From: an uncultured Candidatus Saccharibacteria bacterium
GTDB taxonomy: Bacteria; Patescibacteriota; Minisyncoccia; Phycocordibacterales; G965230995
Length of the DNA: 64,000 bases
NCBI GenBank assembly: GCA_965230995.1
Contig: OZ246398.1
Coordinates: 211,768-275,767 of the forward strand
Direction: 5' to 3'
Made by a program: the position numbers and the translations under genes. The notes beneath the pieces were generated by a model. It saw only the letters and a list, made by a program, of their open reading frames with translations. It was not told where the DNA came from and ran no database searches. Positions within the stretch are counted from its first letter, which is position 1. Each line of letters begins with the position of its first letter. Below are positions 10,675-60,497 of this stretch, piece by piece.

Positions 10675-10767
10675 GTCTTTCTTTTTGTTTTTCAATATGG
10701 TATAAAGTTTAACTGTAATATGTTTATAACCAAGCAGGGTAGAGGATAACAATAAACATAAAAATAT

Positions 10768-10840
10768 GCGCCCATAGCTCAGTCGGTAGAGCAGTTGCCT
10801 TTTAAGCAAACGGTCGTAGGTTCGATTCCTACTGGGCGCA
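10768..10840 (+). tRNA. tRNA-Lys (anticodon UUU)
   Basis: Folded by hand: acceptor GCGCCCA/TGGGCGC, D-arm GCTC-AGTCGGTA-GAGC, anticodon loop CTTTTAA, T-arm GTAGG-TTCGATT-CCTAC, discriminator A. No encoded CCA. Confidence 0.85.
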
Positions 10841-10841
10841 C

Positions 10842-10872
10842 AAAATTAAAAGCCGAAAGGCTTTTTAATTTT
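10842..10872 (+). terminator. Long hairpin (about 13-bp stem, GAAA loop) plus T-run directly 3' of tRNA-Lys
   Basis: aaaattaaaagcc-gaaa-ggctttttaatttt. Confidence 0.4.
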
Positions 10873-11009
10873 GTGCGCCCAAGCAAGTCCGGGGGACTTG
10901 CGTGTAGGAATCGAAGCCCGATTGAGTATAATTACGAGTCCGTTTAGGACGAAGTAATTATCCAATCGGGGTACTGACCCTGTAAGGGTCGATTCCTCCT
11001 CTGCGCACA
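10873..11009 (+). repeat. A-type tRNA-linked structured element. Its 5' arm is the complement of the tRNA-Lys 3' end, followed by a conserved nested-stem core, then a near-copy of the tRNA-Lys 3' end.
   Basis: 5' part GTGCGCCCA-(hairpin)-GTGTAGGAATCGAA is the reverse complement of the tRNA 3' end. Core GAAGCCCGATTGAG..ATAATTACGAGTCCGTTTAGGACGAAGTAATTATCCAATCGGGGTACTGA is shared with 26868..27042 and partly with 30112..30271. 3' end GGGTCGATTCCTCCTCTGCGCACA resembles the tRNA-Lys 3' end. Confidence 0.5.
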
Positions 11010-11066
11010 TCGCAACAATAGAAAAACACCTCTGATTTTCAAGGTGTTTTTCTTTTGCGATGTGCG

Positions 11067-11231
11067 AGCCGGACTGAAGCGGAGCGGAGGGAGGCGGGGT
11101 CGCGACTTCGTCTTGAGTTCACGAAAGACGAAAGTTGTGACCACAAAATTAATAACAAAAGGTACACTGTCCATGTAATGGAAGATTCCTACTGCTGAAC
11201 TTTTTTAAGTGACCCCGTAAGGCTCGATTCC
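11067..11231 (+). repeat. B-type G-rich module plus two further degenerate tRNA-Lys T-arm/3' copies
   Basis: GCCGGACTGAAGCGGAGCGGAGGGAGGCGGGGTCGCGA motif shared with 27090..27316 and 25391..25514. Partial tRNA 3' copies GATTCCTACTG (about 11184) and GGCTCGATTCC (about 11221). Confidence 0.4.
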
Positions 11232-11235
11232 TTTT

Positions 11236-11670
11236 TTGACTTTTAATAAAAAATATTGCAACATTATACCGTCATCGGTTTTTAAAGCTGTTGACCTCGG
11301 TGGTATTGTGCCACTGAGAACTGTACCTTTGAGGTGTTTTATGGCTTTGCTTTGTGATGAAACTGGGAAAGACATTCGTTTTGGAGGTGTTCTCATGGCA
11401 GCTAAGCGCCGTGAGGAAACCACCTACTACGCACTGAGTGGCGAGGCGATCAATCGAATTCCGGTGTCCGAACGGCGCAATACCCCATGCCGTAAGGGGG
11501 AGTTGGGCGTGGACATCTATGAAGCAAGTTCCTCCTGCGGCTACAACGGAAGCTATACCCTGAGCGACTTTACTATGGGGGAGTTCAGCTTCTCCATCTC
11601 GAGACAGGTCGCCCAGAAGTACTTGCCGAATCACTACTCGCACTACCCGCCGGCTCAACGCAGGTCGTGA
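11236..11670 (+). CDS. Hypothetical protein in a GC-rich, apparently foreign segment. The likely true start is the internal ATG near 11395 (MAAKRREETTYYALSGE...).
   Basis: Clear switch to GC-rich, GC3-rich codons from about 11290. Long ORFs on both strands, as expected for GC-rich DNA. Function unknown. Confidence 0.3.
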   Translation: MTFNKKYCNIIPSSVFKAVDLGGIVPLRTVPLRCFMALLCDETGKDIRFGGVLMAAKRREETTYYALSGEAINRIPVSERRNTPCRKGELGVDIYEASSSCGYNGSYTLSDFTMGEFSFSISRQVAQKYLPNHYSHYPPAQRRS

Positions 11671-14715: not shown

Positions 14716-15339
14716 ATGAGCACCGCAACGTTGGCGCAGGGAAAGCATCTGCTGGAACTCGCAGCACAGAATGGCTTGTCTTTCGAGGGGCACAACAGTC
14801 TCACTCAGAAAGGTCTTTTGGCCGATTTGTTCGAGGCTGCAGGTAATGGGAATCTCAACACTGTCAACCGGGATGAGTTTCGGAAGATCCTTGGTCTCGC
14901 GCCCCTCGCTATGGAAATGGTTTTGGACTACAGCCAGACGCTCGAGCAGATGATCGCCACCTGGCATTTTGACGGGTGGAATCGCGCCGTCACAATCGAG
15001 CGGTTTCCGATGCTCGGGACGGGCAAGGTTACACTTAAGCCCGAGCTCATACACTTCGACCACTGTATGTCCATCGAAGATGCGGGGGATACTATGGTAA
15101 AGCGCAAGCTCCGTCCTCCAACCCTCGCGGAACTTCTTGCTTTCGGGGCGAAGTATCCCGAACTGCAACGTAAGTTTCCGATCGTCGCGCTCGGTCAGTG
15201 TGCCAGGATCGGTGACTCTCTGTGCTTTCCGTTCCTCGACGGTACCGACGGTAGGCGCTGGCTCGATCTGGGTTGTTGCGAGGAAGGCTGTCAAAAATAC
15301 TGCCGTTTCCTCGGCGTTCGCAGTCTGAGTTCATTCTGA
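14716..15339 (+). CDS. Hypothetical protein encoded in a GC-rich (apparently foreign) island
   Basis: 207-aa ORF with balanced composition. The overlapping minus-strand ORF 14680..15294 is Arg-rich and is judged the spurious partner. GGGG-type ribosome-binding site upstream. Confidence 0.35.
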   Translation: MSTATLAQGKHLLELAAQNGLSFEGHNSLTQKGLLADLFEAAGNGNLNTVNRDEFRKILGLAPLAMEMVLDYSQTLEQMIATWHFDGWNRAVTIERFPMLGTGKVTLKPELIHFDHCMSIEDAGDTMVKRKLRPPTLAELLAFGAKYPELQRKFPIVALGQCARIGDSLCFPFLDGTDGRRWLDLGCCEEGCQKYCRFLGVRSLSSF

Positions 15340-21440: not shown

Positions 21441-21562
21441 TTTTTCTGAGTATTTTTTCTGAATACCTATGTTGCTATGCCTGAATATGTTGGTATCAAG
21501 TTCTTGTTGGGGTACGCGAGATTTGAATCCACAGGGACGTCCTTTTTAGGTTCTGTATAGTG

Positions 21563-24941: not shown

Positions 24942-25265
24942 ATGGATATTGGAAACATATACAGAAAAATAAAAGACGTTGGCAAAATAAAAAAGCTTGG
25001 CCCTTCTTTTAATCCAGAGAGAGATTGGAAAATTATTTTTGTCATAGCAGTTTTGTTTTTTGTTGCCCAGGTTGCATTCAACGGATATATTTTCTGGAGT
25101 GTAAAAGAGGGAAACATATTCAACAGTCAAACAAAAATAGAAGATCATATACCAGAAATACTCGTTAAACAGCTTGAAAAAAACATCTCTTTCTTTGAAA
25201 GTAAAAAAATACGTTTTGACCAAATTAAACAAGATGGTTTAAAAACAGTTGACCCAGCGAGATAA
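24942..25265 (+). CDS. Small membrane protein, possibly a PilP-like component
   Basis: Single TM. Position after pilMNO. Confidence 0.3.
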   Translation: MDIGNIYRKIKDVGKIKKLGPSFNPERDWKIIFVIAVLFFVAQVAFNGYIFWSVKEGNIFNSQTKIEDHIPEILVKQLEKNISFFESKKIRFDQIKQDGLKTVDPAR

Positions 25266-25300
25266 TCTGTATATTCTATTTGCATACCATAGTGGTATAT

Positions 25301-25372
25301 CCTCTCGTAGTTCAATGGATAGAACTGCGGACTTCTAAGCCGTCAATGTTGGTTCGATTCCAACCGAGAGGA
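25301..25372 (+). tRNA. tRNA-Arg (anticodon UCU)
   Basis: Acceptor CCUCUCG/CGAGAGG, anticodon loop CUUCUAA, T-arm GUUGG-UUCGAUU-CCAAC, discriminator A. Confidence 0.8.
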
Positions 25373-25390
25373 CAATTGCGAAGCAATTTT

Positions 25391-25514
25391 ACGAACAGGT
25401 TGGAATCGAACCGTAGGAGGGGGTCGGGGAACCTGGGGTTTCCCGTGGAGGAAGGATTGGGAAAACCGTGGGTTTCCCAGGAGTTCGAAGCGAAGCGTCC
25501 AACCGAGAGGACAA
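25391..25514 (+). repeat. tRNA-Arg-linked element. 5' arm GGTTGGAATCGAACC is the complement of the tRNA-Arg T-arm. G-rich core related to the B-type module. 3' end copies the last 17 nt of tRNA-Arg.
   Basis: GTAGGAGGGGGTCGGGGAACC matches the GAGG.GGGGTCG.G motif. GAAGCGAAGCG repeat. TCCAACCGAGAGGACAA is identical to the tRNA 3' end. Preceded by hairpin CAATTGCGAAGCAATTTT. Confidence 0.4.
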
Positions 25515-25553
25515 AATTTTTGCCTATAAAACACAAAAGTATATAATCTCTGT

Positions 25554-26687
25554 ATGAACAGGATTTTTAAGAGGCTTTTGTGGGGAAGGAGAAAAGCAGA
25601 CTCTCTCGTGACTGTTTCCATATCTAAAAAAAATATTCTTCACAATCTTTCAGAATTTCAGAAACTGAGTGGTTCTGTTGCTCCGGTTCTAAAGAGCAAT
25701 GCCTATGGACATGGAATTTTGCAGGTGGCACAAATACTAGAAAACTCGAGTGTTCCTTTTTTTGTTGTTGATTCATATTACGAAGCTCATACTCTGAGAT
25801 ATAACGACATACAAAAACCGCTTTTGGTAATTGGTTACACATCAAAAAAAGTAATGGTAGAAAATCGTTTCAAAGAGATTTCTTTTATGGTTACTAGCCT
25901 AGAATCATTGAAAGAACTTTCTGATTTGAAAAAAAATATTTCCATACATTTGAAAATAGATACTGGTATGAATAGACAGGGAATATTGCCTTCGGAATTA
26001 AACGAAGCACTTTCGTTTATTTCATCAAACAGCCAGATATCTCTATTGGGAGTAGCTACACATTTTGCAGATGCCGACAATGAAGATAAAAAATATTCTT
26101 TGGAACAAATATCAATCTGGAATAAATGCGTAGAAATTGTAAAAGGAAAATTTCCTGAAATAAAATATATACACATATCAAATACGGCTGGCCACGCGTA
26201 TATAAACAAAGCCATATCAAATGTATCGAGGCTTGGTATTGGATTATATGGAATAAAAACAGGTGGACCGATTGACGATATGGTTTCTTTGAAGCCTGCG
26301 ATGAAAGTAAAGACAATAATTACAGGAATAAAAAATATTTCAAAAGGTTCTCGTGTTGGATATTCTGGAACTTTTGTTGCTCAGAAAGAAATGAAAATTG
26401 CTACTATACCTTTTGGATATTTCGAAGGTATGGATAGGAGGCTTTCTAATAAAGGCTATGTAAAAATAGGGGATAGTTTTTCAAAAATTGTCGGTAGAGT
26501 GAGTATGAACATTGCAACAATCGACGTTACGTCAAAAAAAGACATAAAGATCGGAGATGAAGTTTTGCTCATAAGCGATAATTCAAATGATAAAAACAGC
26601 ATAGAAAATATTGCCAGGCTGTGTTCGACGATTCCGTATGAGATTTCAGTCCACATTGAGAGAAGTCTAAAAAGAGAAGTTGTTTAA
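25554..26687 (+). CDS. alr: Alanine racemase
   Basis: PLP-lysine motif VAPVLKSNAYGHG. 377 aa. Confidence 0.85.
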   Translation: MNRIFKRLLWGRRKADSLVTVSISKKNILHNLSEFQKLSGSVAPVLKSNAYGHGILQVAQILENSSVPFFVVDSYYEAHTLRYNDIQKPLLVIGYTSKKVMVENRFKEISFMVTSLESLKELSDLKKNISIHLKIDTGMNRQGILPSELNEALSFISSNSQISLLGVATHFADADNEDKKYSLEQISIWNKCVEIVKGKFPEIKYIHISNTAGHAYINKAISNVSRLGIGLYGIKTGGPIDDMVSLKPAMKVKTIITGIKNISKGSRVGYSGTFVAQKEMKIATIPFGYFEGMDRRLSNKGYVKIGDSFSKIVGRVSMNIATIDVTSKKDIKIGDEVLLISDNSNDKNSIENIARLCSTIPYEISVHIERSLKREVV

Positions 26688-26867: not shown

Positions 26868-27042
26868 CCTAGAAAGCTCCTGGGGAGCTTTCGTCCAGGA
26901 CTCGAAGCCCGATTGAGCGACATTGTTTGATTTATCAGACAAGAAGTACTCTTGTGGTGCATAATTACGAGTCCGTTTAGGACGAAGTAATTATCTAATC
27001 GGGGTACTGAACATGTAATGTTCGAGTCCTGTATCGCCCACA
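26868..27042 (+). repeat. A-type tRNA-linked element (tRNA-Val copy)
   Basis: Hairpin GAAAGCTCC-TGG-GGAGCTTTC. CAGGACTCGAA is the complement of the tRNA-Val T-loop and T-stem. The conserved core is identical to the tRNA-Lys copy over ATAATTACGAGTCCGTTTAGGACGAAGTAATTATC. The last 22 nt, TTCGAGTCCTGTATCGCCCACA, are identical to the tRNA-Val 3' end. Confidence 0.5.
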
Positions 27043-27089
27043 ATTACAAAATCCACCCACAAGGGTGTGATTTTGTTTGTGGGCGATAC

Positions 27090-27316
27090 ATGGCGAGAAG
27101 GCCGGAACCGCACGGAGCGAAGCGGAGTCTGAATTCTTTTTTGCTAAAAAGAATTCAGAAGTGAGGCGGGGTCGCGAACACTTAGTCCGCGCAATATTAC
27201 GAAGTAATATGAGCAGACTTAGTGATTCGTGACCGAGTCCTGGAACATATCGAGCGAACGAGCTTTTTATGAGCCCTTAGACGAAGTAAAAAACCACGAG
27301 AGTGACCGAGTCCCTT
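27090..27316 (+). repeat. B-type G-rich module with an inserted 14-bp-stem hairpin and two degenerate T-arm copies (GTGACCGAGTCC twice)
   Basis: GCCGGAACCGCACGGAGCGAAGCGGAG ... GAGGCGGGGTCGCGA is shared with 11067..11231. Confidence 0.4.
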
Positions 27317-30111: not shown

Positions 30112-30271
30112 CAAACGAATGAAATGAGTATGGGCACAGGAGGTCCAGCTCTTTTGTCTTAAAAGAGCGTTGGACGGATTTGAAGCTGTTGTGAGATAGA
30201 TTGCGAGGAACGAAGCAATATATCCACAACGGGTACTGAACATGTAATGTTCAAGTCCTCTCCTGGGCACA
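30112..30271 (+). repeat. A-type tRNA-linked element (tRNA-Leu copy) with covarying stems
   Basis: GGGTACTGAACATGTAATGT is identical to the tRNA-Val copy. 3' end TTCAAGTCCTCTCCTGGGCACA is identical to the tRNA-Leu 3' end over 22 nt. Core stem A is CTGTTGTG/CACAACGG where the others have CCCGATTG/CAATCGGG. Core stem B is TAGATTGC/GCAATATA where the others have ATAATTAC/GTAATTAT. Confidence 0.5.
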
Positions 30272-30359
30272 GACGAAAGATATACTTAATAATAAGTGTC
30301 ATTTGCTATTTATGGTTTTTTTGTGTTATAAATAGCTAGTTCTGCAAATGCAGACGTAT

Positions 30360-59879: not shown

Positions 59880-60497
59880 TCACTCATTCATGTGATACGC
59901 CCGGACGAGTTCCTCTTCGGTATTTGCATTGAAAAGGAGGTGATCCCTTTCGGTCTGAAGCCCCCGTTCTGCGTAGACGCGCGCGTAAACCTCCATCCGG
60001 GCAATCTGCGCCTCGCGTACCTCTTCGGGCTTCCCGAAGACCTGCAGGACACTTCCTTTGCCTGTCGGCCGGATGAGGTGTGCGTGCGGATGCTTCAGGG
60101 TTGCCCCCGAGAGATCCGGCCTGTCACCGAACCGGAGAGCCAGACCTCCCCCTCGGATGTTGTACATCCCGCAGAGAGTGTTGAAGAAGGAAAAGAGCTC
60201 CGCGCCTTCTTCGGGCTTGAAAACAAAACCAGCGACATCCTTCGGGTGCCTCTTGAGGACTAGCACGAAGGGTTGATGTTGGGAGGGGTTTTCCTTGTAG
60301 ATTGCGTTCTCAATCACAGTCCAGAACATCCCCACGAGGACTGCTCTGTTCGGTTCCTTGATTTTGCAAAACGGGCAAACATCTTGTTCGATAGCCCGCC
60401 TCATGATTTCGTAGTAGTGGTAGCCCCAGCAGTTTTCGAGCCAACAAATCCAGTTTTTCACCGCATTTTCTCCGTTGAGGGTTTCGCCAAAGATCAC
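59880..60497 (-). CDS. HIT-superfamily protein (GalT-like / Ap4A-phosphorylase-like) on a GC-rich, apparently foreign segment
   Basis: CPFC zinc knuckle and histidine-triad LKHPHAHLI. Homologous to the AT-rich native paralog 62036..62476 (CPFC ... LSGAT.SHLHLHII). Confidence 0.5.
   Translation of the reverse strand: MIFGETLNGENAVKNWICWLENCWGYHYYEIMRRAIEQDVCPFCKIKEPNRAVLVGMFWTVIENAIYKENPSQHQPFVLVLKRHPKDVAGFVFKPEEGAELFSFFNTLCGMYNIRGGGLALRFGDRPDLSGATLKHPHAHLIRPTGKGSVLQVFGKPEEVREAQIARMEVYARVYAERGLQTERDHLLFNANTEEELVRAYHMNE

Follow-up and report, generated by a model that had tools for sequence, protein, structure and literature searches.

The DNA analysed here is a stretch of 64,000 nucleotides (nt) from an uncultured Candidatus Saccharibacteria bacterium (contig OZ246398.1), referred to below as the window. 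By its alanine racemase homologues the bacterium is of Patescibacteria/Parcubacteria type. The window is AT-rich (37.7% GC) and carries seven tRNA genes. One of them, on the forward strand at positions 25301-25373, encodes a tRNA-Arg with the anticodon TCT and without an encoded CCA (ARAGORN; Rfam tRNA model, 62.9 bits; the end is placed at 25373 or 25372 depending on the tool). Behind this gene lies an element of 141 nt that is flanked by two copies of the 3' part of the tRNA, one inverted and one direct. We examined the structure of this element, its relatives and its possible origin.

The element, all of whose parts are read on the forward strand, starts with a linker mini-hairpin evident from sequence and fold, AATTGCGAAGCAATT (AATTGC-GAA-GCAATT), followed by TTT (25374-25388). 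At other loci this position is taken by a terminator-like hairpin; scoring of the mini-hairpin gave no canonical terminator. Next comes the 5' arm, or anti-T arm, at 25398-25412 (GGTTGGAATCGAACC). It is the reverse complement of tRNA positions ~52-66. Its partner in the tRNA, to which all 15 nt are complementary (inverted repeat I1, 100%), is 25351-25365 (GGTTCGATTCCAACC); this segment runs from the two final bases of the T-stem 5' strand through the T-loop and the T-stem 3' strand to the first base of the acceptor strand. The core, designated B2, occupies 25413-25482 and consists of purine-rich linkers (AGGAGG, GGAGGAAGG and AGGAG) around two hairpins, as indicated by the repeats D1 and I3 and by a consensus fold. 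A repeat search divided it into two units of ~34 nt (25415-25444 and 25449-25478) with a spacing of 34 nt and 73% identity, each containing one GGGRAAACC/GGUUUCCC hairpin. Hairpin H1 (CGGGGAACC-UGG-GGUUUCCCG) spans 25425-25445 in the consensus fold, and hairpin H2 (UGGGAAAACC-GU-GGGUUUCCCA), which also corresponds to repeat I3, spans 25458-25479.

The 3' side begins with a copy of the T-loop at 25483-25497, in which GTTCGA (25483-25488) is interrupted by the insert AGCGAAGCG (25489-25497). GTTCGA can pair with TCGAAC of the 5' arm, and the insert includes a GCGAAGC mini-hairpin. The element ends with TCCAACCGAGAGGACAA (25498-25514), representing the T-stem 3' strand, the acceptor 3' strand, the discriminator and CAA. 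This is identical over 17 nt to 25359-25375, the 3' end of tRNA-Arg plus three trailer bases (direct repeat D2, 100%). The 3' side thus exceeds the 17-mer, as GTTCGA together with the 17-mer (TCCAACC...) is a copy of tRNA-Arg from the T-loop onward with AGCGAAGCG inside the loop. The starts of the two direct repeats are 139 nt apart, with no conserved open reading frame (ORF) between them. An earlier note on this DNA had pointed out the inverted T-arm copy, the two core hairpins and the terminal copy of the tRNA 3' end, and all three were confirmed.

Downstream of the element and outside it, a near-consensus promoter-like site TTGCCT-16-TATAAT (25520-25547, forward strand) precedes an alanine racemase gene (alr, by Pfam). 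We considered B2 as a riboswitch or leader of alr and rejected this candidate, taking into account that the near-consensus promoter lies downstream of B2 and that the downstream genes differ at each locus. A search for relatives in species genomes by way of the alr protein yielded only a 47%-identical locus without a tRNA.

Copies of the B2 core

A covariance model of the core (R1) was scanned over 430 kb. It matched the window (125 bits) and the metagenome contigs L261 (130 bits), L260 (107 bits) and L296 (87 bits), with no other match in the 430 kb. The copies are found 24-83 nt behind tRNA-Arg(TCT) in the window, tRNA-Gly(GCC) in L261, tRNA-Gly(TCC) in L260 and tRNA-Ile(TAT) in L296, and the arms on the three contigs are complementary to their own tRNA-Gly or tRNA-Ile. 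At every locus the 5' arm complements the T-loop and T-stem 3' strand of the local tRNA, extending to its acceptor strand where such a part is included, and the 3' end copies the 3' part of this tRNA. The Arg element has each feature of this family, namely the anti-T arm, the AGGARGGGGTCGGGRAAC hairpin, the GGAGGAAGG linker, the GGAAAACCGTSGGTTTYC hairpin, the T-loop/3' copy and a tRNA upstream. The cores of the window, L261 and L296 are 86-94% identical to one another, and that of L260 has an additional hairpin. The insert AGCGAAGCG is present in L261 and absent from L260 and L296. In terms of structure, the four sequences are 94% paired, with compensatory change in five pairs. H1 and H2 are almost invariant; H1 has a single covarying pair (G-U, G-C, A-U), and its other pairs do not vary.

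L296 was found by a protein query with the spurious antisense ORF that spans the Arg element. Two further B2 copies are visible as database 'proteins' containing ELLGNPRFSQSFLHG, which are again spurious antisense ORFs, and in one of them the antisense tRNA-end peptide APGRI flanks the core on both sides. B2 is thus known from four independent loci and two peptide traces. The database 'proteins' P0121, P0122 and P0123 (100-148 aa) are spurious calls of this kind, antisense translations of tRNA and B2 cassettes. Concerning a coding function of B2 itself, all six frames are open, but indels between the copies break each frame, and this candidate was rejected. A peptide search with the sense frame gave nothing, the antisense ORF recovered only other B2 copies as spurious ORFs, and a search of protein representatives with the antisense B2 ORF returned unrelated large repeat proteins.

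The earlier note had described the Arg element as a G-rich variant of the second ('B') modules at the tRNA-Lys and tRNA-Val loci, here called B1. This classification could not be maintained, as the GGTCGCG/CGTGACC stem is missing from the Arg element and its true R1 homologues are those with 87-130 bits. What remains of the proposed link is a shared G-rich motif of ~12 nt; R1 gave no match on the Lys and Val modules even at E<=10. The motif GAGG.GGGGTCG.G, put forward as a search pattern, matches only the Lys and Val loci; the corresponding sequence of the Arg element (GGAGGGGGTCGGGG) is shorter by one base and is not a literal match. The G-rich motif was also considered as a possible remnant of the variable loop and T-stem of a tRNA. 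A tRNA-Phe in L285 has AGGAGGGGGTCG, but the best score (12) does not exceed that of shuffled units (10.5±1.2), and the candidate was dropped.

A family of cassettes behind tRNA genes

The Arg element is one unit of a system of cassettes in the flanks of Patescibacteria tRNA genes. The system has at least three cores (A, B1 and B2), rather than the two module families that had been suggested. Its architecture recurs within the window at tRNA-Lys and tRNA-Val, as already noticed, and additionally at tRNA-Leu, and it is found on dozens of metagenome contigs. On the forward strand of the window, an A core lies behind tRNA-Lys at 10904-10999 (98.2 bits with R2, the A-core model; fold z = -8.4) and is followed by a B1 core at ~11060-11142, with degenerate P3/T-loop remnants up to ~11240. 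The A core behind tRNA-Val (26895-27032, 65 bits) is likewise followed by a B1 core, at ~27078-27243. A further A core (30173-30261, 77.4 bits) stands behind tRNA-Leu(GAG) together with an exact copy of the tRNA 3' part. In this unit (30113-30272) the linker ACGAATGAAATGAG replaces the terminator hairpin, and the same motif occurs in L263 and L278. The direct repeats at the Val and Leu loci measure 21-23 nt. Altogether four of the seven tRNAs in the window have cassettes, and ~1.3 kb of the window is cassette sequence.

A metagenome scan with the A-core pattern gave 48 loci, 44 of them genuine. When R2 was scanned over 407 kb, 66 A cores were matched behind 24 isoacceptors. A same-strand tRNA lies within 130 nt upstream of 43 of these, and six more, as later units of arrays, have one within 600 nt. 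Six cores lie at contig ends, and 11 have no intact tRNA within 600 nt upstream. The expectation of the earlier note that the motif would occur only in association with tRNA genes held for all four B2 copies available as DNA. For the A cores it held in 49 of the 66, and these 11 depart from it as far as intact tRNAs are concerned. Three of the 11 were inspected: a degenerate tRNA 3' end stands at the head of two, and the third lacks a tRNA of any kind. Arrays with tRNA-matched arms and copies, and with no intact tRNA heading them, were seen in L250 (100-900, reverse strand), L253 (11880-12100) and L291 (9150-9400). That of L250 includes two perfect tRNA-Lys 3' copies, and a tRNA-Lys gene is absent within 6.8 kb.

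The helices of the A core are 95-99% paired with double changes in 22 pairs, values that were reached by none of 500 shuffles. A U.G pair that is conserved in 32 of 41 sequences indicates that the tRNA-sense strand is the folding strand. The A core resembles a hammerhead in its CGAG-hairpin-CGAAG and CUGA motifs, but the junction topology differs and no model matched, and this identity was rejected. In L244, L269/L276, L271, L279 and L291 the T-loop copy 3' of the A core is interrupted by ~14 nt (for example AAATGTACTCATGG). The interruption is similar to the 3' strand of the P0 hairpin in its unit. This allows it to pair with the 5' strand of P0 instead, which could constitute a switch.

The B1 core, of which about 10 copies were seen, is made up of GAGGCGGGGTCGCG, a variable hairpin and YCGTGACC, followed by a T-loop copy. 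The copy in L281 ends with the A-type GGGTACTGA and a P3 hairpin, which shows that the cores are themselves modular. In L285 (2065-2330) a B1 core is located between a duplicated 5' part of tRNA-Phe (acceptor and D arm) and an anticodon-loop fragment, directly upstream of the intact tRNA-Phe; cores can accordingly also be embedded in 5' duplications. The heptamer GCGAAGC is present in the Arg linker (25378-25384), in the T-loop insert of B2 (25490-25496) and in B1 units (27117-27123). As DNA, GCGAAGC forms an unusually stable mini-hairpin, and its recurrence hints that folding of single-stranded DNA may matter.

Two further observations in the window concern its other loci. Downstream of tRNA-Ser(TGA), on the reverse strand at 21512-21536, there is a degenerate T-arm copy (CCTGTGGATTCAAATCTCGCGTACC compared with CCCGTGAGTTCGAATCTCACCTCC) without a recognisable core, which may be a decayed unit. 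The ORFs at 11236-11667, 14716-15336 and 59883-60497 are GC-rich (peaks of 58-70% GC in a genome of 38% GC) and have no Pfam match. The first directly follows the tRNA-Lys array, and all three may be recently acquired genes.

Searches for known families and for partners of the cassettes were negative. Rfam 15 at gathering thresholds returned only the seven tRNAs from the whole window, and at E<=10 the regions 25250-25560 and 10700-11320 gave tRNA and noise far below threshold. No Rfam 15 match was obtained for any other family, including hammerhead, twister, pistol, hatchet, HDV-like, T-box, tmRNA and group I/II introns. The comparison with integrase arm-sites or known non-coding RNA models that the earlier note had proposed thus gave no evidence of arm-sites and no fitting model. 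As for neighbouring proteins, no family is common to more than five of the 44 loci, and no reverse transcriptase is among them. The 10 window ORFs that were tested included neither a recombinase nor an intI. When 2.9 million viral contigs were scanned, specific patterns gave no real copy and one false positive, and loose 14-nt patterns gave random matches only. We found no description of such elements in the literature, of which our coverage was incomplete, so that an earlier description is possible. A paper on tRNA introns in Patescibacteria does not mention such units (PMC13011429).

Arm matching, turnover and possible modes of action

We compared the reverse complement of the 5' arm with tRNA positions 54-65 in 34 A units with an identified tRNA. 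On average the arm matches the tRNA at 11.1 of 12 positions, and the unit's own 3' copy matches it at 9.1. Where the tRNA and the 3' copy differ, the arm sides with the tRNA 72 times and with the copy four times. The helix of the arm with its own 3' copy is the least conserved one (72.6% paired). The complementarity extends past the acceptor strand into the trailer of the gene and up the terminator-like hairpin, as exemplified by ACAAAA at the Lys locus, and does not extend into CCA. This indicates that the partner of the arm is the adjacent gene or its precursor in cis, and not the mature tRNA. The tRNA 3' part, the linker and the arm together make one long palindrome. When the transcript of tRNA-Arg and B2 was folded, the minimum free energy structure (-91.8 kcal/mol, z = -5.4) paired the real T-arm (25351-25365) with the arm at 25398-25412, and the 5' end of tRNA-Arg with the distal copy. 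A primer-binding site of a retroelement for the mature tRNA was rejected, as the complement enters the trailer rather than CCA and there is no reverse transcriptase nearby.

The units differ between related loci. The syntenic tRNA-Arg(TCT) locus in L294 (alr 62% identical; neighbours RuvX, PilM and alr shared) has an A-like core in place of B2, with arms that fit its own T-stem (TAGG/CCTA, compared with TTGG/CCAA in the window). Behind tRNA-Val, L292 (alr 71% identical) has one unit and the window two. The hairpin that follows tRNA-Val in L292 corresponds in the window to the hairpin after the 3' copy of the first unit, as expected if a unit was inserted next to the tRNA. The tRNA-Leu units of L292 and the window differ in linker, P0 and P2, and the Val A core of the window is a mosaic with a Lys-like P2 domain and a Leu-like P3. 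On the 1.03-Mb contig L255 (3314-3547, reverse strand), a whole A unit with its 3' copy, terminator, arm and core is duplicated exactly and in tandem behind tRNA-Leu(TAA). In the Lys array the 3' copies are more decayed distally. B2 is tRNA-proximal in both arrays where other units accompany it (L261 and L296), and its copies are more alike than A cores (median 77%), raising the possibility that B2 is a recent arrival. In L296 (2580-2690, reverse strand) tRNA-Ile(TAT) is followed 20 nt later by a perfect 36-nt repeat of its 3' half, which begins in the anticodon loop and precedes the B2 unit. This repeat adds another type of tRNA duplication to the array and corresponds to a classic anticodon-loop att site.

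Taken together, we tentatively favour the reading, to which we give somewhat less than an even chance, that the Arg element, as a non-autonomous cassette, undergoes recombination in the segment from the tRNA T-loop to the 3' end and is transcribed as the trailer of the tRNA. The family consists of small, Patescibacteria-specific cassettes behind tRNA genes with no protein gene of their own, and the Arg element is a complete unit of it. Each unit comprises, in order, a linker (a terminator-like hairpin or a short motif), the inverted T-loop-to-3' copy, one of the at least three folded cores and the direct T-loop-to-3'-end copy. Units would be gained, lost and exchanged by recombination within the tRNA-derived repeats, new ones entering beside the tRNA and displacing the older 3' copy outward. 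As the near-universal T-loop box is found inverted around every core, an exchange of cores could leave the outer, tRNA-specific portions of the arms in place. Exchange at T-loop boxes would account for one core occurring behind different tRNAs with local outer arms, and for different cores at orthologous tRNAs. The arm would stay matched to the real tRNA because both form one long palindrome in cis, its fidelity arising either because the palindrome provides a template for correction or because recombination itself requires the match. Transcription of the unit would occur solely as the trailer of the tRNA precursor. The fidelity of the arm could also reflect an RNA-level role on this precursor.

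Several points weigh against this reading. We saw neither a recombinase nor an excised form, nor an empty site in a near-identical strain, so that mobility is deduced solely from comparison. Moving to a new tRNA host would require both arms to be rewritten, by a mechanism that is purely hypothetical. The cores have RNA-like features (conserved unpaired purines, the G.U pair and GNRA-like loops) that would be superfluous for a purely selfish DNA element. The 3' copy is intact in 10 of 14 units without a terminator and in seven of 18 with one, a trend (p about 0.05-0.09) that hints at RNA-level selection. B2 alone folds no better than shuffled sequence (z = -1.5), and the structural support for B2 itself is thin because its helices are nearly invariant in the four known copies. 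In addition, most loci were retrieved by the A-core pattern, and the frequency with which B2 and A co-occur is biased accordingly.

A bolder extension, which we consider doubtful, is that Patescibacteria tRNA genes serve as integron-like platforms. At the universal T-loop box, recombination would take up cassettes that carry a folded nucleic acid instead of a gene, stack them and reshuffle them, with an attachment hairpin composed of the target tRNA 3' part and its inverted copy. If true, this would represent a new class of mobile element with target-templated arms, possibly folded single-stranded DNA taken up by naturally competent cells, and each of the three core types would be a functional RNA or DNA of a new kind.

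An alternative that we regard as unlikely is a cis-acting RNA device for the tRNA. On read-through, the anti-T arm would pair with the T-loop and 3' strand of the precursor, so that maturation of the tRNA is blocked or timed, or read-through transcripts are marked for double-strand-specific cleavage. The downstream 3' copy would be a decoy that releases the tRNA, and the core would sense or bind a factor. The conservation of the arm against the tRNA itself and the pairing of the arm with the real T-arm in the minimum free energy fold agree with such a device, and the tendency of the 3' copy to be intact where no terminator intervenes, together with the RNA-like conservation of the cores, keeps it alive. 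On the other hand, only four of the seven window tRNAs have cassettes, and orthologous tRNAs have different or fewer units. A terminator-like hairpin precedes 18 of 32 A-type units, arrays without an intact tRNA exist, and a single purpose would need three unrelated cores.

Still less probable, in our judgement, is a stand-alone small RNA with tRNA-like ends. RNase P, RNase Z and the CCA-adding enzyme would excise and stabilise the core, which would act in trans, and the AGGAGG-like linkers could bind a protein or the ribosome. RNAs with tRNA-like ends are exemplified by E. coli rtT RNA, mascRNA and tRNA-scaffolded RNAs. In many A units, complements of the acceptor strand and of the T-stem occur together with a P0 hairpin and would give a closure like a tRNA minihelix. 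The 3' copy ends at the discriminator plus 2-3 nt, and the core sequences are conserved. However, it is the closing helix with the unit's own 3' copy that is least conserved, and the B2 unit of the window lacks an acceptor complement entirely. The processing enzymes make use of the T-loop, but here it is either base-paired or disrupted, and processing does not need identity with the neighbouring tRNA.

An ordinary scar, that is, attL/attR sites left by a deleted prophage or integrative element with the core as a remnant of its end, is largely refuted, and we consider it very improbable. Partial tRNA 3' copies beside tRNA genes are the usual footprint of integration (PMC9897764), and the 36-nt duplicate in L296 begins at a classic integrase site. 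Independent deletions, however, would not give a unit of ~100-140 nt with constant boundaries ~80 times behind 24 or more tRNAs. There is no integrase nearby, the unit is absent from the 2.9 million viral contigs, and compensatory covariation in the core and the tRNA-matched inverted arm would be left without explanation. A fortuitous resemblance or an assembly error in this G-rich intergenic region, for which the unexceptional folding energy of B2 alone would speak, is refuted by the perfect inverted and direct repeats (by our estimate expected within 241 nt at ~3e-5 for the 15-mer and ~2e-6 for the 17-mer), by the presence of the tRNA-Arg and B2 sequence in an independent Logan assembly (L003) and by homologues in four other data sets.

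If the cassette reading is confirmed, the units represent a widespread class of conserved nucleic-acid elements found neither in Rfam 15 nor in the literature, occurring in the most streamlined bacterial genomes known and attached to their most conserved genes. Arms that copy the local tRNA would point to a new way to target or retarget recombination, or to a new RNA acting on tRNA precursors. The three new structured cores would be candidates for ligand binding, catalysis or protein binding. The cassettes also affect annotation in Patescibacteria, through spurious ORFs in protein databases, partial-tRNA calls and inflated 'intergenic' space.

Comparison with known systems

Group I introns in Patescibacteria tRNA genes interrupt the anticodon loop (positions 35/36), match RF00028 and self-splice (PMC13011429). 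The cassettes resemble them as structured RNA elements at tRNA genes of the same phylum, but follow complete tRNA genes and match no intron model.

Small intergenic repeat elements include miniature inverted-repeat transposable elements (MITEs), REP/BIME, the pneumococcal BOX with its modular A-B-C structure, and Correia. MITEs are characterized by element-specific terminal inverted repeats, a short target duplication and many kinds of site. The cassettes are similar in being short, palindromic, modular, multi-copy and strain-variable, GC-rich relative to the genome, devoid of a protein gene and often placed behind terminators. They differ in being tied to tRNA 3' ends and in the deep covariation of the core, and their arms, rather than being specific to the element, are copies of the local tRNA and vary from locus to locus.

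In the E. coli tyrT locus, 178-bp repeats that each end in 19 nt of the tRNA-Tyr 3' end are transcribed with the tRNA, giving rise to rtT RNA, a family included in Rfam. rtT is not known to have an inverted T-arm copy and occurs at a single locus. In both systems, units that end in a copy of the tRNA 3' end follow the tRNA gene in tandem, whereas the cassettes have no rtT sequence or model match in Rfam and stand behind 24 or more isoacceptors.

Integrative elements at tRNA genes, such as prophages, ICEs and genomic islands, duplicate the tRNA 3' part, leaving the intact gene on one side and a displaced partial copy on the other (PMC9897764). The cassettes are comparable in that a direct repeat from the T-loop (in L296, from the anticodon loop) to the tRNA 3' end flanks the insert, and in that units can be stacked. 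They are distinguished from attL/attR by their size (100-250 nt), by having no integrase, gene or kb-scale cargo, by the inverted tRNA copy and the covarying core, and by their absence from viral contigs.

Folded single-strand attachment sites are used by integrative mobile elements exploiting Xer (IMEX) of the CTX-phi type, which integrate via host XerC/D at dif with a hairpin formed by two inverted mimics of the host site, and by integrons. The integron attC site is an imperfect palindrome with conserved AAC...GTT boxes that is recombined by IntI, in arrays next to intI/attI. The order found in the cassettes, with a host-site copy, spacer, inverted copy, cargo and second host-site copy, is that which a hairpin attachment site leaves after integration, and they likewise have arrays of different cargos split by palindromes, structure on one strand and no recombinase gene in the cassette. 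In terms of the boxes, GAAC is found at the end of the B2 arm and GTT at the start of the T-loop, but the A arms have GAAG at their end. The site mimicked here, by contrast, is a tRNA gene and not dif or attI, the cargo is a folded core of ~70-100 nt without a gene, and the arrays have no adjoining integrase. Although the proteins that define those systems were not seen, the logic of the cassettes, judged by analogy, appears closest to that of folded-attachment-site cassettes of the CTX-phi and attC types, combined with the att duplications known at tRNA genes.

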